From the IMG/VR virus record IMGVR_UViG_3300042301_001596, positions 1,441 to 65,440 of that record: a DNA stretch of 64,000 bases; one strand, written 5' to 3'. Each line of letters opens with the position of its first letter. Position 1 is the stretch's first letter. Under the pieces are notes generated by a model, which was not told the origin of the DNA, ran no database searches, and worked only from the letters and a program-made list of their open reading frames with translations. The position numbers and the translations under genes are program-made. The DNA comes from a virus (Duplodnaviria > Caudoviricetes). Positions 7,257-54,936 of this stretch are shown here, piece after piece.

Positions 7257-7453
7257 CCCTCTGCCCCTTTTGGTGAGAAAACTTTTTTACTTGTTGTGCA
7301 GCCACATACTTCACAATAGTCCCGTAATGTACCCTGAACCCAGTGTTCACAATCAAAACAAGTTAAGAGCCTTTCTTGAGCAAGCTGACTTTCTTCCTCT
7401 GTTGGATTCATAGAAGCTGCATAGGACAGGAATATTTCTTTTAACTTGTTCAT
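7229..7453 (-). CDS. small Cys-rich Zn-binding protein
   Basis: RxxxCxxC...CxxCGC...CPxxKW pattern. Confidence 0.7.
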   Translation of the reverse strand: MNKLKEIFLSYAASMNPTEEESQLAQERLLTCFDCEHWVQGTLRDYCEVCGCTTSKKVFSPKGAEGCPKGKWQN

Positions 7454-8310
7454 ACGAATAAATTGGTATAATCGGAGTGTTCACCCCAGTAATTATGAGT
7501 TAAAGATAAATTATCTTTGCGATATATTGAATTATGGCTGGTAAAATGTATGCCATGGTTGATATGGATAGCTTGATTTTCGCAGTTCCATCGGCTTCTA
7601 TTCATTGTTTGAGTTTCAATCATACCGCTATTAGTACGCAAAGCATTGGGTAAAATGGCTAAGCAATGCTCAATGGCATCGTCAAATCTCATGGTCATTT
7701 GGTGAAACGGCTCATCATTTTGGCCTCTCTCTTGCCACCCATCAATGCAAAGACCTCCGTAATTCATATTGGTAAGTACGCTGCCTCTATCAAAATCAGG
7801 GAAATCAAAGTAACCCTTTGGGTACATTACATCATGCTCTAGGAAAGAAACGTAATCATATTCGCCAGTTTCTTTTGCAGAATAAAGGCATTGCATAATT
7901 TGGAGCAACTGATTAAGATGCGACTGGGACTGATACCAGCTTCTAACTTGGTAGAATGGGTTTTCCGGCATAGGCTCCCACATACAAGTTACAATGTCTG
8001 CTACTCCATTACTGGCTTGCTTAATTGTATCTAATGACTTGTATATTGATGGCCATATATTTTTGTTGTTGTTGTTGGAATAGAATATACCCAATTTTTT
8101 ACTTTTGGACTTAGGGTATACAAACACACTACCTTCTCTAATGCTGAAGATATTGCCGTCTATATCCAATTCCAGATATTTAACATGACCAACTGCTGGA
8201 TCCCCTATAATATCATTATTAGCTCTTACCACGAGCTTATCCGATACTATTTTATCCTTAATCAATTGGGTACAATCTTGACCTCCGTATGTTGCTTTAT
8301 TTATAATCAT
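7450..8310 (-). CDS. lectin-like (SUEL/DUF3395-type) domain fused to a GT-A glycosyltransferase
   Basis: N-term IxKATYG...IIGDPAVGHVKYL; C-term FLEHDVMY DxD-like motif. Confidence 0.6.
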   Translation of the reverse strand: MIINKATYGGQDCTQLIKDKIVSDKLVVRANNDIIGDPAVGHVKYLELDIDGNIFSIREGSVFVYPKSKSKKLGIFYSNNNNKNIWPSIYKSLDTIKQASNGVADIVTCMWEPMPENPFYQVRSWYQSQSHLNQLLQIMQCLYSAKETGEYDYVSFLEHDVMYPKGYFDFPDFDRGSVLTNMNYGGLCIDGWQERGQNDEPFHQMTMRFDDAIEHCLAILPNALRTNSGMIETQTMNRSRWNCENQAIHINHGIHFTSHNSIYRKDNLSLTHNYWGEHSDYTNLFV

Positions 8311-8984
8311 ATATCTATATTATATTTCCTCTTGTATACTAAAGACCAAAAATTAGTACAACCTGTATGATAATACTTTTCTTCATCATCTAATTCTAAT
8401 GAATTTTCACCTAAATACCAAGGAAGATGTTTAGCAGTATAAGGTTGAGGAAGCCTACTCCCATAATAAAATTTATCTCCACAATCCCACCCTTCTGTTT
8501 GCCTTTTCCTATCATACATTGCAAATGTAGTATCAACACCAGCTATATAATTACCTAAATAATCTTTATCATTCCAGTATTTTGATTCACATCCAATTAC
8601 GGCTTTAGCATATTCGGTATCTGGCAAATCATATATATCTAAAGATAAACCACATTTGGTGATATTTTTATTATCCAATCCATTTATTAATTTATCAACG
8701 TAATCCGATGGGACTGAAGAAATATCTAAATCATGATCCGTTACAATATAATACTCATCATTGTATTCATTAAACAATTTAGAATCCCAAAAAATCCTTT
8801 CCCCGTATCTATCTTTGAAAGTATGCACCTTAAAAGGACAATTTTTATACCATTCTAACAATGGCGGATAAGTAGATGAATTGTCCAAAAGAATCGGTTC
8901 GCATCCAGTATCAGCTAAATTTTCAGCTAATTTTTTAGGTATTGTCAACCTATTATACATTATTATGAAAGCTTTTATTTTCAT
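8307..8984 (-). CDS. GT2-like glycosyltransferase
   Basis: FIIMYNR, ILLDNSS, YYIVTDHDL (DxD) and VDTTFA motifs. Confidence 0.75.
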   Translation of the reverse strand: MKIKAFIIMYNRLTIPKKLAENLADTGCEPILLDNSSTYPPLLEWYKNCPFKVHTFKDRYGERIFWDSKLFNEYNDEYYIVTDHDLDISSVPSDYVDKLINGLDNKNITKCGLSLDIYDLPDTEYAKAVIGCESKYWNDKDYLGNYIAGVDTTFAMYDRKRQTEGWDCGDKFYYGSRLPQPYTAKHLPWYLGENSLELDDEEKYYHTGCTNFWSLVYKRKYNIDI

Positions 8985-9910
8985 ATTAAAACCGATTTTT
9001 TAGCTGTTTCTTGTATTATATCCCAATATTTTTTACTGGCAGTACCTTCTTTTATATCTAATGTTGCACTATAAGGCAACTGGTTCATGTACTCTGCTTT
9101 ATAGAATAAGCCACCGGCAGATGTAACAACACCGGCATTGTGAAATATATTTAATCTATCCCAATCCGCTTCGGTACTTGTACCCCATGAAAATTCTAGT
9201 TCTGGGTGACAAATGGTTTCTGCTCCACGTTTCCAGCCGTTCCACAAAACCGCCCACATGTCTGCGCACCATATCTGTAACTCATGATGAGTTGGATCTA
9301 ATTGCTTCTTTTGATTATTGAGGTGCGTTACTTCATAAAATAATCTTTCGCAATCTCTTTCAACGTCCGCCCAAAACTGCGCATCAATACCTTTCATCAG
9401 GTACTGCGCTCCGATTGAGTTTAGTTCATTATCTTTTATGAGTGATTCAGGTATGTCCACTATCTCACACATTTTATCTATTACGTCTTGGCCTTTGCCT
9501 AATATGTAGCTATGTCCTATGTACCAGCGACAATCGGATCCGTACCACTTATCATCTTGTAGGAACTGCTCCCAATCTATTTTCTTTGTAAACGCAATGT
9601 CGCAATCGTGATAAAGAATAGCTTCACCATTCAAGTAATCATTTGCTTCAAAATGCTGCTTTAATATGTTTGGACGTATTGAGGATATGTAATGTCTGCT
9701 TTGTCTGGTATCTTCATAGAAAAAGAAACGAGCTGGATAATTAGCCGCTAGTTTGCTCCATTCTTCTGGTACTACATTGTTAATCTTCCAGCAAACAATA
9801 TCAATCATGTTGGGGTTGATACCCATTTCAATAAAGTTATTTATCATAACTTCTACTTGCCATGCATAATAAAGTGAGGTTGGTTGAGCGCAAATGAACC
9901 TTAATTTCAT
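8981..9910 (-). CDS. peptidyl O-glycosyltransferase-like protein (plant SGT1 GT96 / HPAT GT95-like)
   Basis: YYAWQ, YISSIRP, ILYHDCDI and WCADMWA parallel the SGT1/HPAT motifs WQ, YxxxNKP/NRP, LDADM and WxxEMY; start likely 9910. Confidence 0.6.
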   Translation of the reverse strand: MKLRFICAQPTSLYYAWQVEVMINNFIEMGINPNMIDIVCWKINNVVPEEWSKLAANYPARFFFYEDTRQSRHYISSIRPNILKQHFEANDYLNGEAILYHDCDIAFTKKIDWEQFLQDDKWYGSDCRWYIGHSYILGKGQDVIDKMCEIVDIPESLIKDNELNSIGAQYLMKGIDAQFWADVERDCERLFYEVTHLNNQKKQLDPTHHELQIWCADMWAVLWNGWKRGAETICHPELEFSWGTSTEADWDRLNIFHNAGVVTSAGGLFYKAEYMNQLPYSATLDIKEGTASKKYWDIIQETAKKSVLI

Positions 9911-9953
9911 GTATTTTTTTTCCAAAGTTAACCGACTTAATTAAATTAAAAAA

Positions 9954-10574
9954 TTATTTTTTGGAATAAAACTGAATCATGTGCTTGGCTATCTTTTCTG
10001 GCACTCTTTTGTAGCTTTTTTGGAAAGTAGTTGGAGCCATATTTATTAGAACTTGATCTCTGTAAATATCAGTAGGGAACTTCTTTAACTTATCCATTAG
10101 ACCATAGCTATAAAGGTATATATTAGCCTTTTGGGTATACAATGATAGGTTAATTGGCAACCCCCATTTCTTTATCTTTTCCACCGCTCTCATCTCACAA
10201 TCCTTTTCTAATTCTATCATGTCATCAAGCATCTTGGACACCTGACTCTTATTCATAATCTTATCTCCTGAGAGCCATGCCCACATATTACCGCATGATG
10301 TACCCCATTTATCCCACCTTTCATCTGATTTCCATTGATCCATGTGAGAGGACTCGTGTACTAATATTTCGGACCACATGGCAAATGGCTTACCACAAGC
10401 AACCACCAGAACTTTATCATCTCCGTCAAAGTAACCACCGCACTCTGTTTCAAAGTCACCAGTTACTACAACCTTTTTGCTTGGCGATAAGACAAGCTCT
10501 ATCTTATACTCCCTACATTGCCTTTTGACAGAATTGATAAACGGCTTAAACTTATCATCTATAGGGAATTTCAT
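9954..10574 (-). CDS. zincin-like metallopeptidase
   Basis: ILVHESSHMDQ (HExxH) with downstream ExDCE. Confidence 0.65.
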   Translation of the reverse strand: MKFPIDDKFKPFINSVKRQCREYKIELVLSPSKKVVVTGDFETECGGYFDGDDKVLVVACGKPFAMWSEILVHESSHMDQWKSDERWDKWGTSCGNMWAWLSGDKIMNKSQVSKMLDDMIELEKDCEMRAVEKIKKWGLPINLSLYTQKANIYLYSYGLMDKLKKFPTDIYRDQVLINMAPTTFQKSYKRVPEKIAKHMIQFYSKK

Positions 10575-10798
10575 TTATTTGGATTGTTGATTATTCTTTC
10601 TATGTACCAGATTGCTTTTTTTAGATCCTCCTTCCCTCCTTTACGCTTCCACCTCCACAAATACTTTATGGCATTGCCAATGGCAAATGCTTCATCTCCG
10701 TCCAACCCTTTTATTGCTTCGTCAATTGCGTCTATACACTCAATTTTTCCAACGTTATAATGTGCTGGGTGGTCTACTTTAGATAATCCTTCCTTCAT
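10571..10798 (-). CDS. DUF3310 family protein
   Basis: VDHPAHY...IECIDAI...GNAIKYLWR...EDLKKAIWY signature. Confidence 0.9.
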   Translation of the reverse strand: MKEGLSKVDHPAHYNVGKIECIDAIDEAIKGLDGDEAFAIGNAIKYLWRWKRKGGKEDLKKAIWYIERIINNPNK

Positions 10799-11777
10799 GA
10801 ATAGCTATATTGTTAACTTTAAAGTTACCATTCTTTTCTACTAAAATATGGGCAAATCCTAAATTGTGCTTTGTGCCATGTGGATCATAATCAGGAGCTA
10901 GTGTACAAAGACAACCAACTGACCATGTACCAATTGTTTCTCCTTTCAGGGTTTTCTCAACGTGATGGCTAGTGGTATGCACATGGCCTATAATTGCATT
11001 TGATTTAACGCGTAAGAACAATCCTCTTGCTGCGTTTACTGGGGCAAATACTCCACGAATCATAGTATGACCATGATGCATCTGCAACTTACCGGCCATT
11101 AAAACTACATGCTCCGCAAAGAATTTAACACCCAACTCATCAAGTTTCATTCTTTGTGGCAAGTGGTAATACTCATCACTAAATAAGATTGGAGCCTTCT
11201 TTATTAAATAGCGTTTAATCCACGCGTCATGATTGCCCTCAATCCAATAGAATTTAGCTTTTGGAAATTGATATTTTAGATATTCTATAAATTGTTTTGC
11301 ATACTGGAACCATGTTCTTACATCATCAAGTCCGGGCGGTGGCGCATCATGGCTTGTAAATGGAGTGTTATCCAATATATCACCTCCCAGAACAATGCAG
11401 TTTACATCATTCTTCTTACCATATTCAACGGCTAATTCAATAGCTTCATTGTCTTGGTTAGGTATGTGAACATCAGAAAGCCAAAGAATGTTATTACACT
11501 CTTTTGGTAGAATTTGAAATTCTCTTTCCTTACAATTTGAAGGAGGTAGTTGTGGTTTGTGGTCCATCATATTTCTTGTGAGTTTTCTATTTTTCCCACC
11601 GATTGCGCCAGTAATAGTTCTAATCATTGTTCTAGCAACTTCTGGACTATCAAACAGATGAGGATATCTTTCAAATGCTATCTTACCCAAATTAGCTTTA
11701 GAACTATTAGGGAAAGCTAATAAAAGCTCCCTGATTATTTTATTCTTAACTGTTGGGCCTGTATGTTGATTTGGCAT
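10779..11777 (-). CDS. calcineurin-like metallophosphoesterase
   Basis: SDVH, GGDILD, GNHD, HGH and GHVH motifs. Confidence 0.9.
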   Translation of the reverse strand: MPNQHTGPTVKNKIIRELLLAFPNSSKANLGKIAFERYPHLFDSPEVARTMIRTITGAIGGKNRKLTRNMMDHKPQLPPSNCKEREFQILPKECNNILWLSDVHIPNQDNEAIELAVEYGKKNDVNCIVLGGDILDNTPFTSHDAPPPGLDDVRTWFQYAKQFIEYLKYQFPKAKFYWIEGNHDAWIKRYLIKKAPILFSDEYYHLPQRMKLDELGVKFFAEHVVLMAGKLQMHHGHTMIRGVFAPVNAARGLFLRVKSNAIIGHVHTTSHHVEKTLKGETIGTWSVGCLCTLAPDYDPHGTKHNLGFAHILVEKNGNFKVNNIAIHEGRII

Positions 11778-12376
11778 TATGCTAAGGTACTATGGAATAC
11801 ACTAAACTTATCCTTTCTATCATCAAGACCATGGGTTCCTCCGTTTACACGCTTTGTTACTGCAACTACTACATCATGGCTATGCCCTTTGTCGCACACG
11901 TCCCATAATTTATTCTTATGGAAGAAGAAGGCAGCAGAAGTAAGTGGATATTTGGTAGCCACTAGATCAGGATTAGCCATAATATCATCATCTACAAATT
12001 TATCAAACGCTGCGTAATTATCCTTACCAGTAAGCTGGATATAACCACGACCTCTGAATTTAAAACCATCTCCACTAGCTTCATCACCATTACCCATGCG
12101 GCCACCATAAACTTTGTTAGCAATTTTTTCAGGTTGTCTTGCATATTTTTCTGCTGCTTCTAAAGTTGGGAAATACTTAGGAAAAATCTTACGAAGCCCA
12201 TCAGCAGAGTAGTTCAAGTTTTCTTTTACAAACTTAAAGTTACCGCTTTCATGAGCGCATTGAGAAAGGAAATGAGATAATCTTAATGGACCATCTATGT
12301 TAAATTTCTCAATGATTAAAGGTATTTCTTCCATTACGTTTGCCGGAAGTTTCTTGGATAACGCTTCTAATTTCAT
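11777..12376 (-). CDS. endolysin, glycoside hydrolase family 19
   Basis: FLSQCAHES, ENLNYS, FRGRGYIQLTG and VNGG motifs. Confidence 0.93.
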   Translation of the reverse strand: MKLEALSKKLPANVMEEIPLIIEKFNIDGPLRLSHFLSQCAHESGNFKFVKENLNYSADGLRKIFPKYFPTLEAAEKYARQPEKIANKVYGGRMGNGDEASGDGFKFRGRGYIQLTGKDNYAAFDKFVDDDIMANPDLVATKYPLTSAAFFFHKNKLWDVCDKGHSHDVVVAVTKRVNGGTHGLDDRKDKFSVFHSTLA

Positions 12377-12377
12377 T

Positions 12378-13582: not shown

Positions 13583-13583
13583 T

Positions 13584-14409: not shown

Positions 14410-14787
14410 TTAATAAGCGTTATATGATTTTTCCTCCACAATGTCGGACTTGTATTTAATGTTAATCTCTCTTTTTATGGCTGCTCTTTGGTCATTTAGC
14501 CTGTAAACCTGTCTTGCCAAAAAGACAAATAACTTATCAAACTCACTGTCATTTTCGCAATCTCGGAGCGAATCCTCTACCACCCATAACTGCCTGTTTA
14601 TATCCAAAAGCCTATGTGTTAGCTTGTCTGCTGCCAGCTCCTTGAAGTTCTCTTTGATTACTTGGTTAATGTACTTCCACTCTTTCTTAATGTTAATCTG
14701 CTTTTCCTCGTCTAAAATTTCAAATGATTTGATGGTTAAGATGGTGAACTTGTCGGCTATTTCGCCAATGCTTACTTCTATTTTCAT
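14410..14787 (-). CDS. DUF6165-like protein
   Basis: EVSIGEIADKFTILxIK...LWxxED...ARxVYxLNDxRAxIKxxIN...EEKSY signature. Confidence 0.8.
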   Translation of the reverse strand: MKIEVSIGEIADKFTILTIKSFEILDEEKQINIKKEWKYINQVIKENFKELAADKLTHRLLDINRQLWVVEDSLRDCENDSEFDKLFVFLARQVYRLNDQRAAIKREINIKYKSDIVEEKSYNAY

Positions 14788-14799
14788 AATAATTATTTT

Positions 14800-14857
14800 A
14801 GGCAAAGATATATTTATTTAATTAAATTAATTACTTTTGCTTAATTAAATTAATTTT
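14800..14857. promoter_or_regulatory. divergent Bacteroidota-type promoters with two TTAATTAAATTAATT boxes
   Basis: TATCTTTG on - (14803-14810), TACTTTTG on + (14832-14839); boxes at 14818 and 14841. Confidence 0.7.
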
Positions 14858-16213
14858 ATGCCAACTAGCTTTCAATTCTTCAAACAAGAGGTAAGGGATT
14901 ACATAGTAGATAACGTAGACATAAACAAAAAGATATTAGATGTGGGGGCTGGTATTGGCACCTATTCTGATATGCTAAAAAACTATGGTTACTACATGGA
15001 TTGCGTAGAGATATACGAACCTTATGTAGTTAATTATCAATTAGATAAGAAGTACAACAATGTATTTATACAAAGCGTAGTTGGTTTCCATTTTGACTAT
15101 TACGAGTTCATTATCATGGGTGATGTGCTTGAGCATTTATCTGTGGAAGATGCACAAAGTATCATCAGAAAGATAGTCCATAGCGGTAAGCAATGTCTGA
15201 TAGCGGTGCCATATCTTATGGAACAGGGAGAGCATGAAGGTAACATCCATGAAACCCATTTGCAGCCTGACTTAACTCCGGCAGTCATGGAAACCAGATA
15301 CCCAGAACTTAGATTACTTTATGCTAACCAGTATTATGGCTACTATGTAAACAGAACCCATAAGCATGAGAAAGCCTACCTATTGTACGCTGATGACTCT
15401 TATTTTGATTTGGTCCAAGTATGCGCTGAATCTATCCGTAAGTTCAGCAGCCTACCGATATTAGTATACATGCTCAACTCTGATAAGAAGATTCCCGACA
15501 TAGAAGATACCAAAACAATTAGATGGGATTGTGATGTAAAGCACCTGAAACAAAGGTCCGACTACATTGATAGATCCAATAAAAGCATCTACAAACTACT
15601 AATACAAAGACCTTTAATAACCAAACATGCACTTGAAAACTATGCTGAAACGATTGCGTATGTGGATTCTGACTCTGTGGCTAGTCCATTTGTTGACAAC
15701 ATCTTTACTTTCTATAATGAAGAATCTAGTCACCCCTATTTTACAGAAGGTATCTATGAATATCTTATGGTCAATGGTAGAGGCGGCGCTGAAAGTAGGG
15801 CGGATTTAAGCACTACATTAGAAGCACCAGCCTGTGAGCTATTCAATATAAACCAGTATGTCCGTAACAGATACAGGCAAACAGGATATTATGTTGCAGG
15901 GCAGAACACCATTGAATTTTTAGATGAATGGTTCTGGATGTGTAACCACCCTAAAGTATTAAAGAACCACAACTATTACGCACCCTTCCATGAAGAAACC
16001 ATACTTCAAGCCCTTCTGTATAAGCGTATGACATTTTCAGGACTACCATACTGCTACATCAATGGACTACATAAAGACCTAAAATTTACTGGTCATGATA
16101 ATTTAATAGGGCCATGGATTAAAGTACCTTCACATAAAGAACATTTACTATTCTATCATGGAGAAAAGAACATTGAAAAGATTAAAGAATTTATAAACCA
16201 ACTAAACAAATAA
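14858..16213 (+). CDS. SAM-dependent methyltransferase fused to a GT-A glycosyltransferase
   Basis: ILDVGAGIG and GDVLEHL (class I MTase); AYVDSDS (DxD) and FYHGEK in the C-terminal domain. Confidence 0.8.
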   Translation: MPTSFQFFKQEVRDYIVDNVDINKKILDVGAGIGTYSDMLKNYGYYMDCVEIYEPYVVNYQLDKKYNNVFIQSVVGFHFDYYEFIIMGDVLEHLSVEDAQSIIRKIVHSGKQCLIAVPYLMEQGEHEGNIHETHLQPDLTPAVMETRYPELRLLYANQYYGYYVNRTHKHEKAYLLYADDSYFDLVQVCAESIRKFSSLPILVYMLNSDKKIPDIEDTKTIRWDCDVKHLKQRSDYIDRSNKSIYKLLIQRPLITKHALENYAETIAYVDSDSVASPFVDNIFTFYNEESSHPYFTEGIYEYLMVNGRGGAESRADLSTTLEAPACELFNINQYVRNRYRQTGYYVAGQNTIEFLDEWFWMCNHPKVLKNHNYYAPFHEETILQALLYKRMTFSGLPYCYINGLHKDLKFTGHDNLIGPWIKVPSHKEHLLFYHGEKNIEKIKEFINQLNK

Positions 16214-16306: not shown

Positions 16307-16519
16307 ATGACACCAAAAGAAAAAGCACAAGAATTATTTGATAAAATCTACAATATAAGTGGCTTAACAAAAGAATCTAAACAAATTTCATTAATAGCAG
16401 TAGATGAAATATTAAAAGAATATGCACACGCAGAAAATCATATTGAAGATATTATGGGTAAAATAAGTATCTATATAAAGTATTGGCAAGAAGTTAAAAC
16501 AGAAATAGAATTATTATGA
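16307..16519 (+). CDS. MTPKEKA-family small phage protein
   Basis: MTPKEKAQEL...AVDEIL...YWQEVKxEI; paralog at 59623. Confidence 0.7.
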   Translation: MTPKEKAQELFDKIYNISGLTKESKQISLIAVDEILKEYAHAENHIEDIMGKISIYIKYWQEVKTEIELL

Positions 16520-18570
16520 GAATATTATTTTTAGCTCCGCATCTTAGCACAGGAGGTTGCCCCCAATTCATTCTTGGAAGGCTTGGTAGCATGAAGAATC
16601 ACACTGACAACGAATACTATGTAGTAGAATATCAATGCCATGGATTAGATTATGTGGTACAAAGAAACGATATAAAGAACCTAATTGGTAGTAATTTTAC
16701 TACCCTTTATGAAAATAAAATGATTCTATTTGATGTGATAGATTACTTCCAGCCTGATATAATCCATATAGATGAAATGTCTGAAAGATTGGATAGAGAG
16801 ATGGTAAGGAGGCTTTACAATCCAGATAGAAAGTATCGTATCGTAGAAACCTGCCATGACATCTCGTTTGATCCGAATAGCAAGTTATTTCACCCAGACT
16901 TATATTCATTCTGCACTCCGTATCATGAAGAAACTTTTGCTGATTTGGAATCCAAGTATGTTACAATACTTTATCCAATAGAGGAAATTAATCTTAGTAA
17001 ATTCAAGACTATCTGGCAAGATGAATTAGGCTTTGATAGAAACAAAAAGCATGTGCTGAATGTTGGCTTATGGACTCCGGGGAAGAATCAAGCTGAAGGA
17101 ATAGAAATAGCCCGTAAATATCCTGATATGATGTTTCACTTTGTAGGCAATCAGGCTGGGAACTTTAAGCACTACTGGGAACCATTGATGCAGAACTTAC
17201 CACCAAATGTAAAGGTATGGGGAGAGCGAACAGATATTGATCACTTCATGATAGCATCAGATGTATTTATGTTTAATAGCACATGGGAATGTAACCCAAT
17301 TGTACTTCGTGAAGCCATAAGTTATGGGCTACCTATTGTTGCGCGGAATCTTCCGCAGTATGCCGGAATGTATGATAACTACACATACTCAATAGATGCT
17401 GATTTAGAATTGATAGCTAAGTACAATAATATTACATACGATATACCAAAAGACAATACTACAGGTGATTTTGCAAGAGCGCATCAAGTAGCTTATGAAA
17501 AGATATTAGAACTCCCAGCACAAGTACAAAAGGTCCGCATCTTACAAAACTTCATTAATCACCCTTTCCTTGAAATAAAAGGAGAAAGCGATAGTGAATT
17601 TGATGTTAGATTTTATGATGAGAATGATGTATGCCAATACCAAAGTGTAATCAAGAGTAATAGCTGGGTAAGGCTCAATAGACAATACTATACTAAATGG
17701 AAAACGTATGTATATCAGGACGGAGAATTAATCTATGAAAACGTATTGGATTTGCATAGTAAAAGGGTATTCATATCAATAGAAAGTAGCGCGCTTGGAG
17801 ATACTATTGCATGGGTTCCGTATGCTTTAGAGTTCCAAAAGAAGCATGGTTGCAAGGTTGTGTTGTCCACTTTTCATAATAAAATACTGGACTACCCTGA
17901 ACTTGAATTAGTAGAACCCGGCAGCTCTGTTAATTGTTATGCCATGTATAAGATTGGTTGGCACTATGATACCAATAGAGAACCAGAACTGCCAAACACA
18001 ATACCACTACAAAAGGCAGCGTGTAATATTTTGGGCTTAAAATACACTGAAATTCGCCCCAAATTATTTACCAAGAGAGATTGCCCAGAGCATGATAAAT
18101 ACATCACTATTGCCACTAATTCTACCACAGGATGCAAGTTTTGGGTAAGGGAAGAATGGCAGAAGCTAATTAACCATTATACCGAACAAGGCTATAAAGT
18201 ATACAATGTTTCCAAAGAAGTAAATCCATTTGATAATTGCCCACAGATACCAGATACATCAATGGAATCAACAATGGATTGGATATACCATAGCACATTC
18301 TTCGTAGGACTCAGCAGTGGTTTATCGTGGCTCGCGTGGAGTTTAGGTAAGCAAGTTGTACTAATAAGCAACTTTACTGAATTTGACCATGAGTTCCTTA
18401 CCAACTGCATACGAATCACAAATGAAAAAGTATGTCATGGATGCTGGAACAAACCAGAAATAAAATTTGATAAAGGCAATTGGAATTGGTGTCCTTACAA
18501 TAAGAACTTTGAGTGCCAGACTTCAATCACCGCAGAGATGGTAATAAATAGAATTAGTCGTTACTTATAA
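16516..18570 (+). CDS. GT4 glycosyltransferase fused to an Aah/TibC (BAHT)-like protein O-glycosyltransferase
   Basis: N-term HLSTGGxPQ, KNQ, SxWExNPIVLREA (GT4); C-term SALGDTIAW, GLSSGLSWLAW, CHGCWN...WCP...FEC four-Cys iron-finger pattern. Confidence 0.85.
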   Translation: MRILFLAPHLSTGGCPQFILGRLGSMKNHTDNEYYVVEYQCHGLDYVVQRNDIKNLIGSNFTTLYENKMILFDVIDYFQPDIIHIDEMSERLDREMVRRLYNPDRKYRIVETCHDISFDPNSKLFHPDLYSFCTPYHEETFADLESKYVTILYPIEEINLSKFKTIWQDELGFDRNKKHVLNVGLWTPGKNQAEGIEIARKYPDMMFHFVGNQAGNFKHYWEPLMQNLPPNVKVWGERTDIDHFMIASDVFMFNSTWECNPIVLREAISYGLPIVARNLPQYAGMYDNYTYSIDADLELIAKYNNITYDIPKDNTTGDFARAHQVAYEKILELPAQVQKVRILQNFINHPFLEIKGESDSEFDVRFYDENDVCQYQSVIKSNSWVRLNRQYYTKWKTYVYQDGELIYENVLDLHSKRVFISIESSALGDTIAWVPYALEFQKKHGCKVVLSTFHNKILDYPELELVEPGSSVNCYAMYKIGWHYDTNREPELPNTIPLQKAACNILGLKYTEIRPKLFTKRDCPEHDKYITIATNSTTGCKFWVREEWQKLINHYTEQGYKVYNVSKEVNPFDNCPQIPDTSMESTMDWIYHSTFFVGLSSGLSWLAWSLGKQVVLISNFTEFDHEFLTNCIRITNEKVCHGCWNKPEIKFDKGNWNWCPYNKNFECQTSITAEMVINRISRYL

Positions 18571-19022: not shown

Positions 19023-19433
19023 TTATGGGGCTTCTGTTGTAGAAGTTGTTGTATCAGGGGCTTCTGTTGTAGTAGTTGTAGTAGGAGCCTCTGTAGTGGT
19101 AGTCGTAGTGGTACTTGGCACAGGAGGAATATACTCGCCTGTAATTGTCAATTTAAGTTGTGTTGCTGCCCAATTATATATCCAATTATTTGCATCTGAT
19201 GAAGTGTCCCAATCTAGGTAATCTTGTCCTGATATATTCAATGAACCATTTACCAAAGTATTAAACATAGGGTAAGGAGCTGGAGTAATTGGGCTTGTAA
19301 TAACCTCATTTAATTGATATTGAAAAGTTGCATTTGTAGATAAGTTATCAAAAGAAGATGTTAATACAAATACTGTTGCTTCTTTTTCTTCGCCATTTTG
19401 CCAAGACAAAATTGGTTCAATTGTTTTTGCCAT
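19023..19433 (-). CDS. tail-associated protein with C-terminal mucin-like Thr/Pro tail
   Basis: ends PSTTTTTTTEAPTTTTTTEAPDTTTSTTEAP. Confidence 0.7.
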   Translation of the reverse strand: MAKTIEPILSWQNGEEKEATVFVLTSSFDNLSTNATFQYQLNEVITSPITPAPYPMFNTLVNGSLNISGQDYLDWDTSSDANNWIYNWAATQLKLTITGEYIPPVPSTTTTTTTEAPTTTTTTEAPDTTTSTTEAP

Positions 19434-19660: not shown

Positions 19661-20533
19661 TTACAAACCAAATCTTGCTTTAGTAGCATTATAATTTTGT
19701 AGAACCTCCGCAGCAGTTAATTCTCTGTTATATACATGTAATAATGCAATTTGCTGGTTTGCTCTAAAATCAAAATTCGCTGTACACCAACCTGCTGTAG
19801 AAGCTCTTAAAACAGGAGTATTGGTAGGAGTTGATGTTGCAATAAGATTCCCGTTTCCATATACCCTCATTCTTGATGAAGTTCCGGGGAGCCATGTACC
19901 AACCATATATAACCAAACATTATTGCTAGGGAATGTTCCACCTCTTGCTAAAGGCTGGGTAATAGCAAGTGTAACTGGGTCTACACCAACCCCCACTGAC
20001 ATCCACTGAGATGTACTAGGTGTTGATTTCCCAATAAATAAACTCCAACCATTTTGTTGAAACTGACCAAGATCTTGTCCTCTTTCAAACATAGTATAAC
20101 CAGTACGAGTTTCTTGCACGTTAAACCATCCTCCAAATGAAAAGGCACTATCATCAGCTCCTTTTGCTCCAGCCGAATTTGGGAATGATATAAATCCAGT
20201 ATTACCAGTTAATGCCATAAATTTTGGCCCAGTAGAATTATAAGCTACTGCTCCAGCAAAGGTGGCATTATATCCATTTCCACTTAAATCAAACCATGTA
20301 GTTCCAGTTCCCGGATAAGATTTAGGACTACTAGCATCCACATATATATTTAGGCCACTTGTAATGATAGGGATTGCGCTATAACCATAGAATTCACTAA
20401 TAGCATCAGGACTAGAAAATCCAGCATTAGCACTAAGTTGTCTTAGGCTATAAGTTGAAGGGAACCCCCAAACATCAACCTGTTCATTTCTAATTTGTGA
20501 TATACTCAGTGGTCCACTAACTGGTAAGGGCAT
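19661..20533 (-). CDS. tail protein with LamG/concanavalin A-like domain
   Basis: MPLPVSGPLSISQI phage-tail N-terminus; SYPGTGTTWFDLSGNG...YNRELTAAEVLQNYNA. Confidence 0.85.
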   Translation of the reverse strand: MPLPVSGPLSISQIRNEQVDVWGFPSTYSLRQLSANAGFSSPDAISEFYGYSAIPIITSGLNIYVDASSPKSYPGTGTTWFDLSGNGYNATFAGAVAYNSTGPKFMALTGNTGFISFPNSAGAKGADDSAFSFGGWFNVQETRTGYTMFERGQDLGQFQQNGWSLFIGKSTPSTSQWMSVGVGVDPVTLAITQPLARGGTFPSNNVWLYMVGTWLPGTSSRMRVYGNGNLIATSTPTNTPVLRASTAGWCTANFDFRANQQIALLHVYNRELTAAEVLQNYNATKARFGL

Positions 20534-42602: not shown

Positions 42603-42875
42603 TTAATTATTTGAAAAATAAGCTAATATATCGTTATGACGAATCAAAAAATGCAATTCATTATTTACAACAACAGGCTCTCCTGCTCCCTTAATATGGA
42701 AAATGCAATCATCTTTTTTGGCTTCCATTTTTACTTTAGCAGTTCCGCGACCTACAGAAATTACTTTTGCTTTGCTACTTCTTTCCCTAAATCCTTCAGG
42801 GATAAATAATCCGCCTTCTGTAATTTCATCAGCCATAAATGGTTTCACTAAAACAAAATCTCTAATTGGTTTCAT
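42603..42875 (-). CDS. groES: co-chaperonin GroES
   Basis: MKPIRDFVLVK...TEGGLFIP...VISVGRG...IRHNDILA. Confidence 0.85.
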   Translation of the reverse strand: MKPIRDFVLVKPFMADEITEGGLFIPEGFRERSSKAKVISVGRGTAKVKMEAKKDDCIFHIKGAGEPVVVNNELHFLIRHNDILAYFSNN

Positions 42876-48580: not shown

Positions 48581-50977
48581 TTATTGTTGTGTTTCCATTT
48601 GTTGTTCCATTTCAGGTTCCATTTGTTGTTCTTGAGGACCTTGTTCCATTTCTTGCTGTTGCATTTGCTCCATTTCAGCTTGTTGCTGTTGAGCCAAGGC
48701 TTTCTGTTGTTGCTGATTTTGAACAGCAATTGGAACAGTTACATTCTGCAACATATTTGCAACCAAAGTCTGAAGTTCTGCCGGTACAGGTATATTCGCT
48801 TTTGCAAGATCAAAAACACCTTGTAAAATTATCTCCTTTTCCTTAGTTAAAGACTTTTGCTGTTCAAGAGCGCTATCCGCTTGCATCTTAGCTTGAATAC
48901 TAGCTTGTTGAGCTTCTGCATTTTGCTGAGAATTGATTTGAGCTTTTTCTTGCTCAGTTTTTATAAATCTTTTCTGAGCTTGTCTAAAATACAATTCTCC
49001 AAGTTCTACATTTTCCTTAGCCATTCTCATTGCTTTGAATGGATCTAAGTAAATAACTAACTGAGGATTTGATGCAACAGCATTGTTCATCATTGCTTGT
49101 AATGTAGCAACTTGTACATCGTCAGGCATCATCTTAATAGAAGCAACAAAGTTTCTATCTTTTACATCTTCTTGGTTTAATAAATCGCTGTATTTTTTAG
49201 CACCATGCGTAACGCTTTTATTAATTAAGCAAGCAACTTTTTTAGCTGTTTCTTCCATTACATAAATATATGCATCATACATATATTCTGTAGCGTTATT
49301 CGCTAAAACTCTTGAAGCCTCAATATTAGAAGCAGCTACTCTTGGTTGCGCAGCCTGATTCATTAAATTAGGATCTTCACCTAATTCATCTTTTAATACT
49401 TGATAATGGAATTGATATAACTGAATTAAAGCTTGTAATTGAGGTGAAAAACCTGTATTAGCTAATTCTGTAATTGGAACAGGAATACGATTACCTTCAG
49501 CATCTCTACCGCGATAATAAAGCTTACCTGTTTGCTCCCAAATCTTTTGAACATCAATAGGCTTTACAGAATCACCTAAACCTAAGTCAAGTTCCTGTAA
49601 TGCATCAACATCAATTGCCGCACCTGCTGGTACCATTTTAGCTACAAGTTGTTGTATCTTTAATCTAGCTAAAATCATTTGCTCAATAGGCTCTTCAATT
49701 TTTTCTGGTACAGCTACGTTACGCATGTCATAAGGATCATACATATAAAAGCTATAAGAAAACTCTGCGTTACCTATTTCTTTTGGATCTTGTGGACGAA
49801 TCATGTTTTTCTTGACACCCCAATGAATCATTGTTTGAGTAACCGGGCAATAAACACCATGATAAATATTCCACTTTTTCTCTTCTAAATATTCTTGATT
49901 TTCATCTAATTTTTCTGGCTTTCCTTTTTTGATAATAGTGCTACCATTCTTTTTAGTTTTAGTAACAGTATAACCATCAGAATCTAATGTGCGAATTTCA
50001 AAATTCATCAAATCAATATTCCACTCGTCATAAGGTCTTAGCCAAGAAACATTCCAATCTTGCATCCACTTAATCTTATCAGTAAGTTGATACTCTTTTG
50101 AAGATTGTGCTAACAAAAATATATCTTCCTCAGAAAGAGTTCCTCCTGCTGCTTTGCTATATCTCGCTCTTACTTCACTAATCTTCATTGAAAGAATATG
50201 ACCTCTGTATGTCGTATCTCTAAAATCAGGAAAATCAGAATATGAATAGATAGCATTTTCAGGTCTAATCCATTGAACATGAACTTCACCTTCTTCATCC
50301 ATCCAAGTATATGTACAAACTAATCCAACCTCAGCTGAATCATGCAATAACCTTTGTTTCAAAACATCGTTCCATCCATTAGCTTCAAAAACATTATTAC
50401 AACCAATGCTGTATAATATTTCTTCTGGCAAATGATTGAACTCCATTATCCATTGATCTAACTCATCCCTATCTTCTGCAACAAATTTATCTTTAGGGAT
50501 AATTTCAACACCCGATTCTTGCTGTAATTGAGCAAGAGTTTCTTTATTTCTGTATAAAAATTCTGCCTCATCTGCTTGTCTTTGTTTTAACATTGCAGAT
50601 GCGCTATCATTGGCATTAACAGTAATTTTTTCTTTGCGACTCATCCAAGAACCAACTAATCTAGCAACAATAGTATTGCCAATAATAATTGATTTCCAGT
50701 TAATATTTACAAAATTGGCTTTACCATTCATTTCCAATCGGTCCATAAACACACTCATGTCTACTTTACCGTTGGCAATTTGTCTGTTTTTTCTAAATCT
50801 ATTGTTTCTTAACCAAAAATAAGTTTGGTTACCATAAATTGTAGAATAGATATTTTGGGCAACATTTTTACCGTATAAATAATCTTTTTTAGACGCTACA
50901 TCAGTAGTAATTTGGAAGTCTTTAAGCGACTGTCCACTACTATTTGCCGAGGATATGTATAAAGGACTTTCTGCCAA
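48581..50977 (-). CDS. portal protein
   Basis: about 800 aa after TerL; YSYSxxPDF, LxxLKIQQ, QTGxxYYR crAss-like portal motifs; start likely TTG 50977. Confidence 0.85.
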   Translation of the reverse strand: MAESPLYISSANSSGQSLKDFQITTDVASKKDYLYGKNVAQNIYSTIYGNQTYFWLRNNRFRKNRQIANGKVDMSVFMDRLEMNGKANFVNINWKSIIIGNTIVARLVGSWMSRKEKITVNANDSASAMLKQRQADEAEFLYRNKETLAQLQQESGVEIIPKDKFVAEDRDELDQWIMEFNHLPEEILYSIGCNNVFEANGWNDVLKQRLLHDSAEVGLVCTYTWMDEEGEVHVQWIRPENAIYSYSDFPDFRDTTYRGHILSMKISEVRARYSKAAGGTLSEEDIFLLAQSSKEYQLTDKIKWMQDWNVSWLRPYDEWNIDLMNFEIRTLDSDGYTVTKTKKNGSTIIKKGKPEKLDENQEYLEEKKWNIYHGVYCPVTQTMIHWGVKKNMIRPQDPKEIGNAEFSYSFYMYDPYDMRNVAVPEKIEEPIEQMILARLKIQQLVAKMVPAGAAIDVDALQELDLGLGDSVKPIDVQKIWEQTGKLYYRGRDAEGNRIPVPITELANTGFSPQLQALIQLYQFHYQVLKDELGEDPNLMNQAAQPRVAASNIEASRVLANNATEYMYDAYIYVMEETAKKVACLINKSVTHGAKKYSDLLNQEDVKDRNFVASIKMMPDDVQVATLQAMMNNAVASNPQLVIYLDPFKAMRMAKENVELGELYFRQAQKRFIKTEQEKAQINSQQNAEAQQASIQAKMQADSALEQQKSLTKEKEIILQGVFDLAKANIPVPAELQTLVANMLQNVTVPIAVQNQQQQKALAQQQQAEMEQMQQQEMEQGPQEQQMEPEMEQQMETQQ

Positions 50978-51033
50978 TTTGAATATATTTTGTGTCAAAT
51001 ATACTAAATCTCCAGAATTTAATAAAATTTTAA

Positions 51034-53082
51034 TTAATTAAAAGAAGGAACATAGCTTTTTACCAAAGGTTCTCTTTTCGCAGGCTTGATGACAGGTTCC
51101 ATTAAACAAACGATAAGCATTAAAAAAGAAACAGTAATATCGTAGTCAGTTCTGTTATTTGGATCAAACTTCTTGGCATCCTCTAATAAGTTCTCAAAAT
51201 CTATAGAATCAATATGTGATTCAAAATACATGATTCCTACATCAGCTTGTTTTGTAAGGCTAAAAGGGGTAGTAGGGAAACCTTTATACCTCTCAGCTGT
51301 TTCTCTTTTTGCCGGATCTATTGTAGAAATCGGATAAGAACCCAAATATCCAACTCTTCCCCTATCCCTAAAGTATGAAAGATAATCATCACTGTTATGC
51401 TCATACCAAGCCTGATAACCATAGTATTCTGCTGCTAAAAGAACTTGTTCATGTAGTGTTTCTTTAATATTAGGCCTTCCATACAGATGACCAATCGCCT
51501 TACCAGTACTTGAAGGATCTAATAAATTATACCTTCTACCAATCCAAGCGGATGCCTTAGAACCATATTTACCTCCCTGACTATTACTATATCCATCAAT
51601 TGCAATTGCACCATCATCAGTCCTTCCGGGCTTCTTTGTTCTAATATCAAACACATGACTGTTCTCTTTTCCAACAGGTGGAAATTGAGTAATAACCCAA
51701 TGAAAATCTTCCTCTTTATCGTTTATGTTCCTCCATTTTACCGTTTGGTCAATATCTCTATAAAATATAACATGCCTTTTCAATACCGGATTTTCTTTTA
51801 AATAAGACTCTCTAGCACTTATATTCATTACATTAAAAATACAACCATCAGCATCTGTACTAAATGCCTCATCAATCGTTAATGGCTCTTTTCTAATACG
51901 AGCTGATAATGCTCTTGGGTTGTTTTTAACCGTTTCTCTATCTGCTTCAATTTGCAAAAAAGTCTTTTCTTCATCAGGAAAGCCAAAATCATCAAAGTTT
52001 CTTGTTCTTTTTGCGGACATAAAAAATCTATACAACCCACTAGATGTAGTACCATTATCTTGTCTTTTCTCCTGATTGCTCTCTTCCCAAAGTAACTTAA
52101 AAGCCTCTTGAACACCATCTTTTTCAGATGTAAGTTTCTCTACAGTAGTTGTATATAAAGCTTTACCAATAACCTTACCTTCATCATCCAGTAAACAATA
52201 ACGCACAACCTCATGTCTGTCATAAACGTTCACTTCTGTTGTTTTACCGCACTCATCCGCCACATACCTATGCAACTTCTGTCCATCATAAGCTACTGTA
52301 TCGGCAGATTGGTGGTCAATAATAGAACCAAGCTCGTCTTTATCTACATTTTCCTCAGCCTTCTTACCTCTTACGTTTGTTTTTTGGAAACGCATTTCTG
52401 ACTTTGGATTAACACCCAAAGACATATCATATTCAGGTCTAAAAAACTTAGGAAGCCTTCTAAATGGATTTACAACCGTTTTTGCAAAGAATTTCTTAGC
52501 ATCAGAACCTGTTTTAGATTGAATACCTCCATTGGTCATCTTAGTTCTGGTAGTGTATTCTGTAACAAACAATCCTGCCACAAAAGACTTACCAAAACGT
52601 CTTTTTGTAACCTCCAGCATTCCCATACAAAGCGGATCCTGTATGCAATAGTCCATAAAATAGAACTTCTCTAAATCTGGGATCCTAAATTTAGGATAAC
52701 CAATATCTATACTCCACCATTGCAAATACAAGTAATGCATACCTGTTAAAAAGGTAGGCTTGCCATTATTCATGTACCAAAAACCATTCAATCTCCTATC
52801 CCACTCCTGTTTCTTAAACTCCTCTAATTTTTCATCATAAAACTCAGGAGCCTCATCTTTTTTCTTTTTATCATACTCATCCCATTCTTTCATGGTATCA
52901 GCATACCAGCTTGGTAACGGTATTCTTTTCCAATATTGCTCATCTTGAATATCCGACCTTTGGTAAATGCCCCTATGCTCAACTTGTTTAGTCAATATAT
53001 TAAATACATAACCTTCTGGAGGAAGATTACAATCTAATCCCTGAATGTGAATCGTGGAACCTTTTTCAATTTTTTCGTACAT
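51034..53082 (-). CDS. terL: terminase large subunit
   Basis: KRRFGKS (Walker A), YVADECGK (Walker B), AIDGYS nuclease motif, YDITVS. Confidence 0.92.
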   Translation of the reverse strand: MYEKIEKGSTIHIQGLDCNLPPEGYVFNILTKQVEHRGIYQRSDIQDEQYWKRIPLPSWYADTMKEWDEYDKKKKDEAPEFYDEKLEEFKKQEWDRRLNGFWYMNNGKPTFLTGMHYLYLQWWSIDIGYPKFRIPDLEKFYFMDYCIQDPLCMGMLEVTKRRFGKSFVAGLFVTEYTTRTKMTNGGIQSKTGSDAKKFFAKTVVNPFRRLPKFFRPEYDMSLGVNPKSEMRFQKTNVRGKKAEENVDKDELGSIIDHQSADTVAYDGQKLHRYVADECGKTTEVNVYDRHEVVRYCLLDDEGKVIGKALYTTTVEKLTSEKDGVQEAFKLLWEESNQEKRQDNGTTSSGLYRFFMSAKRTRNFDDFGFPDEEKTFLQIEADRETVKNNPRALSARIRKEPLTIDEAFSTDADGCIFNVMNISARESYLKENPVLKRHVIFYRDIDQTVKWRNINDKEEDFHWVITQFPPVGKENSHVFDIRTKKPGRTDDGAIAIDGYSNSQGGKYGSKASAWIGRRYNLLDPSSTGKAIGHLYGRPNIKETLHEQVLLAAEYYGYQAWYEHNSDDYLSYFRDRGRVGYLGSYPISTIDPAKRETAERYKGFPTTPFSLTKQADVGIMYFESHIDSIDFENLLEDAKKFDPNNRTDYDITVSFLMLIVCLMEPVIKPAKREPLVKSYVPSFN

Positions 53083-53083
53083 A

Positions 53084-54156: not shown

Positions 54157-54157
54157 A

Positions 54158-54250
54158 TTTAATTAATTTAATACAAATGTAGAACTAATTTAATTAATTT
54201 AATACTTTTTTTTAAAATAAAAATTAGTAAATTTTAAGTATATTTGTTAA
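54158..54250. promoter_or_regulatory. divergent promoters
   Basis: TACATTTG on - (54174-54181), TATATTTG on + (54239-54246), AT boxes at 54158 and 54187. Confidence 0.65.
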
Positions 54251-54280
54251 AACAATTTATAAACAATAAAATAAAAAAAA

Positions 54281-54637
54281 ATGGCAAATCATGTATCGGT
54301 TTATGTTTATCGTAGAAATCAATACGATTTAACGAACCCAAATGGAACACCTGCAACAAATGGTGTATTATTCACTTTACCAACTGCTAACTTACAGGTT
54401 CAACCTTCTACAGTTGTGGCAAATGGTGTACAAATGAACTCATTAATTCTTATGTACCCAAGTGGCCTTAATCAACCAGCTGAAAAATTATACAGTAACG
54501 CAACTGTTGCTGGTTTAATTGCAGCTATTAATGGAAATGGTATTCAAACTACAACAACAACAACAACAGTAGCACCGACCACCACCACTACCACTACAGC
54601 GGCTCCTACAACCACTACTACAACAACAGCACCTTAA
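54281..54637 (+). CDS. putative virion decoration protein with poly-Thr tail
   Basis: 118 aa; ends TTTTTTTVAPTTTTTTTAAPTTTTTTTAP. Confidence 0.7.
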   Translation: MANHVSVYVYRRNQYDLTNPNGTPATNGVLFTLPTANLQVQPSTVVANGVQMNSLILMYPSGLNQPAEKLYSNATVAGLIAAINGNGIQTTTTTTTVAPTTTTTTTAAPTTTTTTTAP

Positions 54638-54672
54638 CAAAAAAATTAAAAAACAAATAAAAACATTATAAA

Positions 54673-54936
54673 ATGGCACAAATAGTATCAATTACAGCAT
54701 ATCAAAGAAATCAATATGCTTTATTAAACCCTAACGGAACTCCAGCAACATCTGGTATTGCTTACGGATTCCCAGTTGAAGGATTTGTAGCTTACCCAGC
54801 TCCTTCTGGATTTGTAGCAAACGGAGTAACTATGAACTCAATAGTTGAAGTAGCTCCAACAGGCTTAAATCAAGTACCTGTTTACTTCTACACAAATGCC
54901 ACTGTAGCGCAAATTAATGCAGCTGCAAACGCTTAA
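54673..54936 (+). CDS. paralog of 54281..54637 without the Thr tail
   Basis: shares RNQYxLxNPNGTPAT, VANGVxMNS, PxGLNQ and YxNATVA. Confidence 0.75.
   Translation: MAQIVSITAYQRNQYALLNPNGTPATSGIAYGFPVEGFVAYPAPSGFVANGVTMNSIVEVAPTGLNQVPVYFYTNATVAQINAAANA

Follow-up and report, generated by a model that had tools for sequence, protein, structure and literature searches.

Two candidate protein O-glycosylation modules in a tailed phage, each paired with its own type of Ser/Thr repeat

The locus analyzed here raises the question of why a tailed phage should carry a group of glycosyltransferase (GT) genes around its lysis cassette together with four proteins bearing extreme Ser/Thr tracts, and whether the enzymes act on the tracts. 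It belongs to a single viral record (IMG/VR record IMGVR_UViG_3300042301_001596; CheckV completeness 100%), of which 64,000 of 65,440 bases, referred to below as the window, were analyzed. In an earlier reading of the same DNA (the original prediction) two different initiating enzymes, elongating GTs and a capping methyltransferase had been proposed to glycosylate the tracts. The comparative analysis makes it likely that the phage has two O-glycosylation modules, soluble and located in the cytoplasm, with which it modifies proteins of its own ahead of assembly; one would be initiated by a protein termed P0009 on a collagen-like tail fibre and the other by a protein termed P0007 on poly-Thr tracts. 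What the domains are, which catalytic residues are conserved, which genes are fused and how enzyme genes pair with repeat genes across many lineages are direct observations and are described first. The Ser/Thr tracts of the original prediction are all present at the positions given there; the four proteins that carry them are as follows (aa, amino acids).

20517-25421, minus strand: tail fibre, 1634 aa, proposed substrate of P0009, with Pfam Collagen matches (9.4e-47) in 8 stretches and a Peptidase_S74 C-terminus.
36970-41826, minus strand: large virion protein, muzzle-like, 1618 aa, proposed substrate of P0007, with phrog_14478 at the N-terminus.
19023-19433, minus strand: small protein, 136 aa, with a poly-Thr tail at aa 107-130, proposed substrate of P0007.
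54281-54637, plus strand: small protein, 118 aa, with a poly-Thr tail at aa 89-117, possible substrate.

The collagen-like regions of the fibre lie at nucleotides (nt) 24372-25325 and 23394-23852 (aa 33-350 and 524-676). Their Gly-X-Y repeats total 471 aa, close to the ~460 aa of GTS triplets originally estimated, with 369 aa in strict runs (123 triplets), in which X is Thr in 101/123, Y is Ser in 94/123, 94 triplets are exactly GTS and there is no Pro. The repeat has the unbroken Gly-X-Y periodicity of a collagen triple helix, in agreement with the Pfam Collagen match, and is atypical in being Pro-free. The long 9- and 18-base DNA arrays of the gene are degenerate (62-67% matches), and the 94 GTS triplets are spelled by 27 different 9-mers with 63 TCN and 31 AGY Ser codons; this degenerate codon usage argues that the repeat is kept at the protein level and not by DNA slippage. 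In the Gly/Ser/Thr/Asn-rich part that connects the collagen-like regions with the S74 chaperone (aa ~770-1210) the motif ...ASGTWGI(N/S)ITG... occurs three times; this part could be a beta-helix, also offering acceptor loops to an enzyme of the TibC type considered below.

The candidate enzymes, and the lysis gene between the two blocks in which they lie, are the following.

16516-18570, plus strand: P0009, 684 aa, proposed initiating enzyme for the fibre, with a GT4 domain at aa 165-283 and a BAHT domain (bacterial autotransporter heptosyltransferase family, TibC/Aah; TIGR04414) at aa 360-682.
14858-16213, plus strand: P0008, 451 aa, partner of P0009, an S-adenosylmethionine (SAM)-dependent methyltransferase at aa ~5-165 plus a C-terminal domain.
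14410-14805, minus strand: DUF6165 protein, divergent from P0008.
11777-12376, minus strand: GH19-type endolysin (phrog_181 4.9e-68; Pfam Glyco_hydro_19 1.6e-6).
8981-9925, minus strand: P0007, 314 aa, phrog_4417, proposed initiating enzyme for poly-Thr, with a GT-A-fold model.
8307-8984, minus strand: P0006, 225 aa, possible small GT2-type transferase, a lead only.
7450-8310, minus strand: P0005, 286 aa, proposed elongating enzyme, with an N-terminal SUEL-type rhamnose-binding lectin domain and a GT-A fold.

The endolysin gene is confirmed by these matches and marks the lysis cassette between the two GT blocks. Five GT genes had been claimed; the assignment holds for 16516 (through TIGR04414) and for 8981 and 7450 (through GT-A models), whereas 14858 and 8307 are leads.

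The BAHT region of P0009 (aa 360-682) scores 226.8 bits against TIGR04414 (cut-off 200) and matches TibC in the PDB (4rb4) at 3.4e-41, compared with 19.6 bits against the model of heptosyltransferase I of lipopolysaccharide (LPS) synthesis; the Pfam matches of P0009 are Glycos_transf_1 (1.5e-12; 47.9 bits vs a gathering threshold of 26.4) and Glyco_transf_9 (1.1e-7). In the alignment to 4rb4, TibC Asp110, described as the catalytic base, and Thr226, Lys230 and Trp305, described as phosphate- and sugar-binding (PMC4358343), correspond to P0009 Asp429, Thr537, Lys541 and Trp605; among 116 distinct phage homologues the equivalents of the first three are invariant and that of Trp605 is kept in 114. 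The iron-finger cysteines of TibC (Cys339/342/358/370) correspond to Cys640/643/659/667 and are invariant in 116/116 phage homologues, and the position that determines stereoselectivity is Ser, as in AAH. Judged by alignment, the C-terminal domain of P0009 is related to TibC both in its fold and in its chemistry. TibC is described as a soluble cytoplasmic enzyme that glycosylates protein Ser and no Thr (PMC4358343); given this Ser-only specificity, a TibC-type enzyme suits the (GTS)n fibre better than the poly-Thr tracts.

Co-occurrence of enzymes and tracts had been set beforehand as the check by which the proposal could be refuted. It was carried out on 240 viral loci in three sets of 80, and the proposal withstood it: enzymes and tracts occur together far from randomly, and the pairing is specific. 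For set 1 the full GT4-BAHT fusion was found on 203 viral contigs, the best 80 of which were examined (57-94% identity); set 2, seeded with the enzyme of Microcystis phage Mel-JY01, gave 347 more contigs, the best 80 of which (on contigs up to 373 kb) have enzymes 34-45% identical to that of the window. A repeat ORF (open reading frame) was counted when it was Gly-X-Y and S/T-rich (at least 45%); enzymes were clustered at 70% identity, the clusters being partly interdependent, and a gene or ORF was scored as absent when none lay within 10 kb. The third set was seeded with P0007 and is described below.

In set 1 the BAHT gene is followed by an S/T-rich Gly-X-Y ORF in 40/41 loci whose downstream sequence is 6 kb or longer, and in 0/24 loci where it is shorter than 3 kb, as truncation would lead one to expect. 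In the more distant set 2 it is present in 43/80 loci and in 28/38 full-length loci, with poly-Thr in only 6 loci and P0007 in none. By cluster, 13/13 are repeat-positive in set 1 and 20/28 in set 2, so that collagen-like repeats accompany 33/41 BAHT clusters vs 1/42 P0007-seeded clusters (p 2e-14). As a control, a repeat ORF is found in 0/73 P0007-seeded loci without BAHT; the only two loci of the P0007-seeded set with an S/T-rich Gly-X-Y ORF both bear BAHT. Four other GenBank phage records, from three lineages, have a BAHT homologue, and the repeat is nearby in 2/3 lineages: in Mel-JY01, where BAHT forms the C-terminus of a 1226-aa GT4-containing protein (annotated FkbM methyltransferase), it is 1.7 kb from a (GTS/GSS)n ORF, and in phage LR756501 (735 kb) a GSS/GTS ORF lies ~3.6 kb from BAHT, while phage LR756504 has no repeat ORF within 10 kb of BAHT. 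The repeat frame of Mel-JY01 (locus L081, 2-3049) is a 1016-aa plus-strand frame rich in GTS/GSS triplets that reaches the first base of the record and is overlapped by an annotated minus-strand coding sequence (739-2298); the annotation may have placed the repeat gene on the wrong strand, and the gene may continue across the ends of the record.

The poly-Thr tracts form a second group. The 1618-aa protein has three poly-Thr/Pro tracts (aa 1153-1197, 1316-1380 and 1455-1540; nt 37207-38370), and a PDB sequence search with it gave no match; family searches with the product of 54281-54637 gave low-complexity matches only. Across all frames of the window, poly-Thr ORFs are confined to 36970-41826, 19023-19433 and 54281-54637, and 20 codon-shuffled windows gave none.

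P0007 is assigned as a GT through its predicted structure. Its AlphaFold model, made from an alignment of 31 homologues, has a pLDDT (predicted local distance difference test) of 87.8, and Foldseek (probability 1.00) returns the UGGT catalytic domain (1.2e-7), Skp1 alpha-GalT and glycogenin. These are retaining GT8/GT24-type enzymes that act on proteins or glycoproteins, and they are the best folds for P0007 at 1e-7 to 1e-5 with TM (template modelling) scores of 0.45-0.5. A D-x-D-type motif (H106-D107-C108-D109) is invariant in the homologues and is shared with glycogenin-type GTs, but P0007 has no Glyco_transf_8 match at E ≤ 10 and belongs to a separate, large phage family. Pfam and NCBIfam likewise gave no match at E ≤ 10 that would make it a sequence-level member of GT8, and sequence and profile searches of the PDB gave none; the likeness to plant SGT1/HPAT (GT96/GT95) in the original prediction is conjectural. 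The family comprises 2868 proteins in a 90%-identity collection (936 clusters at 50% identity); of its long members, 7/16 scanned also contain, through fusion, a GT2, GT6, GT32-like or methyltransferase domain. One further long member of the 16, P0290, has a radical-SAM/SPASM fusion instead of a GT, which hints at further chemistry. P0005 and P0006 were also considered as counterparts of the fusion partners, and BLASTP of P0005 against a P0007+GT6 protein and of P0006 against a P0007+GT2 protein was not significant, so that the fusions give no evidence of P0005 or P0006 being the partner.

For the P0007-seeded set an alignment of 45 diverse members was used as query, since the single distant member P0408 retrieved 1 locus; it found at least 594 viral loci, of which the best 80 were examined. 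A poly-Thr ORF is present in 62/80, and in 52/80 it lies no more than 150 bp upstream on the same strand, next to enzymes 37-69% identical to the P0007 of the window. The arrangement is directional, with 86 poly-Thr ORFs in 595 kb upstream vs 6 in 570 kb downstream (p 1e-18), and by cluster poly-Thr accompanies 38/42 P0007 vs 3/28 BAHT clusters (p 9e-12). Of the 35 loci of BAHT set 1 that extend over both positions, 19 have P0007 together with poly-Thr and 12 have neither. Orthologues of the 19023 product in the same set (loci L001-L080) have a common core followed either by a poly-Thr tail or by an acidic Pro/Glu/Val tail (...VPPEPIVEE...EEPI), which look like alternative ways of making an extended tail; the poly-Thr form occurs in 8/12 with P0007 vs 1/7 without it (p 0.057).

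The partner genes connect these loci to the window. In L089, L121 and L149 the poly-Thr protein directly upstream of P0007 is a homologue of the 1618-aa muzzle-like protein, and the partners in L106 and L164 give weaker or partial matches to it. The muzzle-like and muzzle-C genes are separate in the window, and in L149, L121 and L089 the P0007-type GT is inserted between them. Among cultured phages, P0007 homologues occur in 77 records, including 23 from Lactobacillus, 21 Enterococcus, 11 Staphylococcus, 8 Lactococcus and 3 Clostridium phages, as well as Chryseobacterium phage MA9V-3 and others. Three cultured phages were opened (MA9V-3, phiFL2B and Iacchus), and the gene directly upstream is poly-Thr in 3/3: gp48 of Enterococcus phage phiFL2B, in the position of the major tail protein, ends in ~25 Thr/Ser residues, and gp072 of Lactobacillus phage Iacchus, annotated 'major tail protein', is two-thirds poly-Thr. 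In phiFL2B (L246) the name 'major tail protein' is attached to gp49 (2345-3909), which is the P0007 homologue (30.5% identity over 95% of the query); the annotation of this phage is probably shifted by one gene.

Comparative support for the pairing is therefore strong as far as gene content can tell, and the double dissociation, in which each enzyme keeps company with its own type of repeat, indicates that there are probably two enzyme-substrate modules. The claim of two different initiating enzymes is borne out to the extent that BAHT pairs with collagen-like repeats and P0007 with poly-Thr.

Several results weigh against this reading. On the enzyme side, Arg286 of TibC is described as contacting adenine N1, and R286A as abolishing or largely reducing activity (PMC4358343); the corresponding position is Thr586 in P0009 and T, V, I, L or A, never Arg, in the 116 phage homologues. 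TibC is described as building its dodecamer ring through a beta-hairpin thumb with a hydrophobic tip, Phe265-Val266 (PMC4358343); in the alignment the corresponding stretch of P0009 is shorter, with Phe265 opposite a gap and Val266 opposite Pro, so that the tip appears not to be kept. Searches of the genome for gmhA and rfaE-II gave no match, and a gmhA-like gene is found in only 1/5 other BAHT-bearing phage records; it belongs to G001, a 343-kb phage (record L178), where it lies at 119364-119834, ~100 kb from BAHT, and scores 188 bits, just below the cut-off. With these genes unmatched here and rare in the other BAHT phages, heptose as donor is unproven. A 'cytidylyltransferase-like' neighbour in Mel-JY01 was considered as a further heptose-pathway gene and was rejected, having no Pfam match at 1e-4.

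On the comparative side, 8/28 clusters of set 2 lack an S/T-rich Gly-X-Y ORF within 10 kb, and 4/23 P0007-bearing loci of set 1 have no poly-Thr in range (poly-Thr alone occurs in none). Tree-based independent contrasts go in the expected direction in 3/3 cases, which are too few (p 0.25). In the window itself P0007 adjoins no poly-Thr gene, the nearest being ~9 kb away, and seven loci with a P0007 88-96% identical to that of the window likewise have no adjacent poly-Thr ORF; in the sub-lineage of the window the enzyme genes seem to have been gathered around the lysis cassette. L031, scored as P0007-negative, carries a P0007 homologue further along the same contig (L149). Finally, of 26 other poly-Thr partners, 3 match a structural or tail PHROG and 2 a PHROG of unknown function, while 21 have no match.

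The remaining enzymes can be attached to one or the other initiator. The methyltransferase domain of P0008 is confirmed by a profile match to PDB 3cc8 (4.8e-8) and by Pfam methyltransferase models in 23/23 homologues, so that the methyltransferase of the original prediction exists, while its capping role is a matter of interpretation. The C-terminal domain of P0008 is probably a GT-A glycosyltransferase: a language-model atlas gives a lead to GT8/Nucleotid_trans, and a D-x-D motif (D270/D272) is invariant. Pfam searches with the 23 homologues gave 0 GT model matches to this domain, a PDB sequence search with P0008 gave nothing useful, a search for shorter proteins homologous to the C-terminus gave fragments only, with no Pfam annotation, and hhalign of the P0008 against the P0007 family (probability 7%) supports no call of relatedness. 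In 16/36 loci homologues of P0008 and P0009 are fused into a single ORF of 1110-1168 aa; the presence of all four domains in one polypeptide ties the two proteins to one pathway. The DUF6165-like gene that had been noted is verified by Pfam (6.3e-11; 42.6 bits vs a cut-off of 27), and a homologue is present in 45/80 BAHT-seeded loci.

P0005 matches the L-rhamnose-binding lectin 5h4s through its lectin domain (profile against PDB, 8.8e-10). Its AlphaFold model (31 homologues) has a pLDDT of 82.1 and finds BoGT6a at 2.1e-7 in Foldseek, with probability 1.00 to many GT-A enzymes; an EHD motif is invariant, and there is no Pfam or NCBIfam family match. It occurs in 17 BAHT-seeded loci, in 17/17 of them alongside P0007. 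P0006 has no Pfam match and a homologue in 1/80 BAHT-seeded loci; its nearest atlas clusters score 0.98-0.99, with PF00535 in 14-17% of their members.

The rest of the scheme is inferred: which residues accept sugars, the sequence in which the enzymes act, the sugar itself and what each module is for. Module 1 would consist of P0009 and P0008, perhaps with the DUF6165 protein. Its TibC-type domain would place the first sugar on Ser of the (GTS)n repeat of the fibre before trimerisation, the GT4 domain of P0009 and the C-terminal domain of P0008 would extend the glycan, and the P0008 methyltransferase would decorate it; plausibly, this would stabilise the Pro-free triple helix. Module 2 would consist of P0007 and P0005, possibly with P0006: P0007 would start a glycan on the poly-Thr of the muzzle-like, 19023 and 54281 proteins, and the lectin-bearing P0005, perhaps with P0006, would extend it, plausibly in order to stiffen and shield linkers.

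Other explanations of the same genes have to be weighed. That the target is not protein at all appears improbable; in this case the enzymes would modify phage DNA, or host LPS, capsule or teichoic acids (superinfection exclusion), and the tracts would be unmodified linkers plus an ordinary collagen-like stalk. DNA glucosylation and serotype conversion are what phage GTs are best known for, according to PMC12619734, the GT9 clan of TibC includes LPS heptosyltransferases, to which P0009 gives weak matches (heptosyltransferase I/RfaC), and the GT blocks flank the lysis genes, outside the structural operon. However, P0009 scores far higher on the protein-glycosylating subfamily than on LPS heptosyltransferase I and keeps the iron finger, and a DNA or LPS target leaves the pairing with two repeat types unexplained. 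Lipid-linked acceptors are further disfavoured in that none of the six window proteins (the GT candidates and the DUF6165 protein) has a membrane-like segment.

It is likewise improbable that the glycosylated proteins belong to the host, or to the phage but not to its virion, serving takeover or defence evasion, and that the pairing reflects accessory-gene hot spots shared by enzymes and repeats near fibre genes. This would agree with the fact that the known substrates of TibC and Aah are adhesins encoded next door and not virion parts, that the 21/26 poly-Thr partners mentioned above lack a recognisable virion family, and that the 19023 and 54281 products lack a structural assignment. A hot spot does not account for an adjacency as immediate and one-sided as that found upstream of P0007, nor for its recurrence in unrelated Firmicutes siphophages and a herellevirus, where the partner is annotated as the major tail protein (Iacchus) or occupies its position (phiFL2B); moreover, wherever a partner has a PHROG category with a function, that category is structural (3/3), and five partners are homologues of the muzzle-like protein. 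Improbable, too, is that the tracts work sugar-free, as flexible spacers and a Thr/Ser-stabilised triple helix, with the GT-like proteins as non-catalytic chaperones or assembly factors: Thr is described as common in bacterial collagen-like proteins, most of them unglycosylated (PMC8968730), and the counterpart of TibC Arg286 is lost, but a catalytic base, phosphate-binding residues and D-x-D motif that are invariant across hundreds of diverged homologues would not be expected of inactive proteins, and fusions among GTs and with methyltransferases make sense only for glycan building.

Beyond the proposal that this phage glycosylates its own proteins, a wider reading is put forward more tentatively, with confidence that falls somewhat short of even: tailed phages of many lineages may carry one or both modules as portable units of enzyme and acceptor that give the virion its own glycocalyx, so that virion glycosylation would be common. 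TibC-type sugars on Pro-free Gly-Ser/Thr collagen might then stand in for hydroxyproline, and the GT-A family might use poly-Thr tags, attachable to nearly every virion protein, as the base for mucin-like glycans. The phages concerned would span host phyla and include cultured phages of Enterococcus, Lactobacillus, Lactococcus, Staphylococcus, Chryseobacterium and Microcystis.

Among known systems, P0009 shares its homologous catalytic domain, key residues and Cys4 finger with TibC-TibA and Aah-AIDA-I of E. coli (PDB 4RAP/4RB4), and the organization is alike: a soluble cytoplasmic enzyme is encoded near a highly repetitive, Ser-rich substrate that would be hyper-glycosylated before export or assembly. 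Unlike TibC and Aah, P0009 is phage-encoded and fused to GT4 (in relatives also to a methyltransferase and one other domain), and its neighbour is a collagen-like fibre and not a beta-helical autotransporter; it further differs from TibC in the replaced Arg286, the apparent loss of the thumb tip and the lack of heptose genes in the genome. Virion glycosylation of mycobacteriophages was reportedly the subject of Freeman et al. 2023 (Cell Host Microbe). In mycobacteriophages, phage-encoded GTs are described as glycosylating capsid and tail-tube subunits at their C-terminal ends (PMC12619734). The same principle would apply to poly-Thr C-terminal tails beside a GT gene (phiFL2B gp48, Iacchus gp072, 19023); the host phyla differ, and the collagen-like fibre would be a second type of substrate here. 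To our knowledge, mycobacteriophages are so far the only phages in which virion glycosylation has been measured.

Bacterial spores offer a parallel for the fibre, with the difference that the collagen-like repeats of BclA and BclA3 contain Pro. BclA of Bacillus anthracis/cereus is described as an O-glycosylated, Thr-rich Gly-X-Y exosporium protein whose glycosylation is thought to stabilise the triple helix (PMC8968730), and BclA3 of Clostridioides difficile as having a dedicated GT, SgtA (PMC7157674, PMC8968730). They belong to the bacterial spore surface and involve other GT families, whereas the window combines a Pro-free GTS repeat with a TibC-type enzyme. Giant viruses (chloroviruses, mimivirus fibrils) are described as encoding cytoplasmic glycosylation of their virion surface proteins (PMC9614988, PMC4691112); these viruses infect eukaryotes, and both enzymes and linkages differ. 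A literature search, with most subscription journals outside its scope, found no description of the two-module system of the window, and none for crAss-like phages, in line with the original prediction.

If the proposal is correct, virion glycosylation would be a widespread, modular phage trait bearing on receptor binding, particle stability, stickiness towards mucus and polysaccharides, and antibody recognition of therapeutic phages; the TibC/Aah family would extend from the maturation of pathogen adhesins to virus assembly, and there would be a bacterial-type route to stabilising Pro-free collagen. Each of the two pairings is found among phages in culture (phiFL2B, Iacchus, MA9V-3 and Mel-JY01), which makes the proposal directly testable by mass spectrometry.

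The window has 28-42% GC, no tRNA genes and, on its minus strand, a long structural block; ring, adaptor and replication genes are also encoded. The following genes were used to place it.

51034-53082: terminase.
48581-50998: portal.
36406-36951, minus strand: 181-aa protein that matches the C-terminal end of the crAss muzzle, below cut-off (crAss_MUZ 24.5 and crAss_MUZ_C 21.7 bits vs 27).

When 9 kb of the structural region were compared with GenBank phages by megablast, nothing matched, and hence there is no near relative among them. The nearest cultured homologues of the terminase large subunit (TerL) and portal, at 23-28% identity, are from Flavobacteriia podophages; of 87 homologue records, 68 are from Flavobacterium, 15 Cellulophaga, 2 Tenacibaculum, 1 Maribacter and 1 uncultured. 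A host in the Bacteroidota (Flavobacteriia) is likely on this evidence. The label 'crAss-like' appears loosely supported: CrAss_Ring_2 (36.5 bits) and SU10_adaptor (33.9 bits) each pass the Pfam cut-off of 27, but the muzzle models fail and the nearest cultured relatives are the podophages just named. The name 'muzzle', given originally to the 1618-aa protein, finds weak support, the crAss_MUZ matches falling on the small neighbouring ORF 36406-36951 and outside that protein.

Three other genes of the window are recorded for completeness. A ferritin/rubrerythrin-like gene (29826-30326, minus strand; Pfam Ferritin 3.7e-15) is flanked by two unannotated structural-block proteins of more than 1000 aa, and draws attention given the iron requirement of the TibC-type finger motif. 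A GroES-like co-chaperonin (Cpn10, 6.5e-16) is encoded at 42603-42875 (minus strand), amid the ring and adaptor genes. At 55090-55704 (minus strand) there is a short homologue, 204 aa, of C5 cytosine DNA methyltransferases, whose best Pfam stretch covers positions 47-117 of 324 and whose match to phrog_757 is almost full length (aa 1-201).

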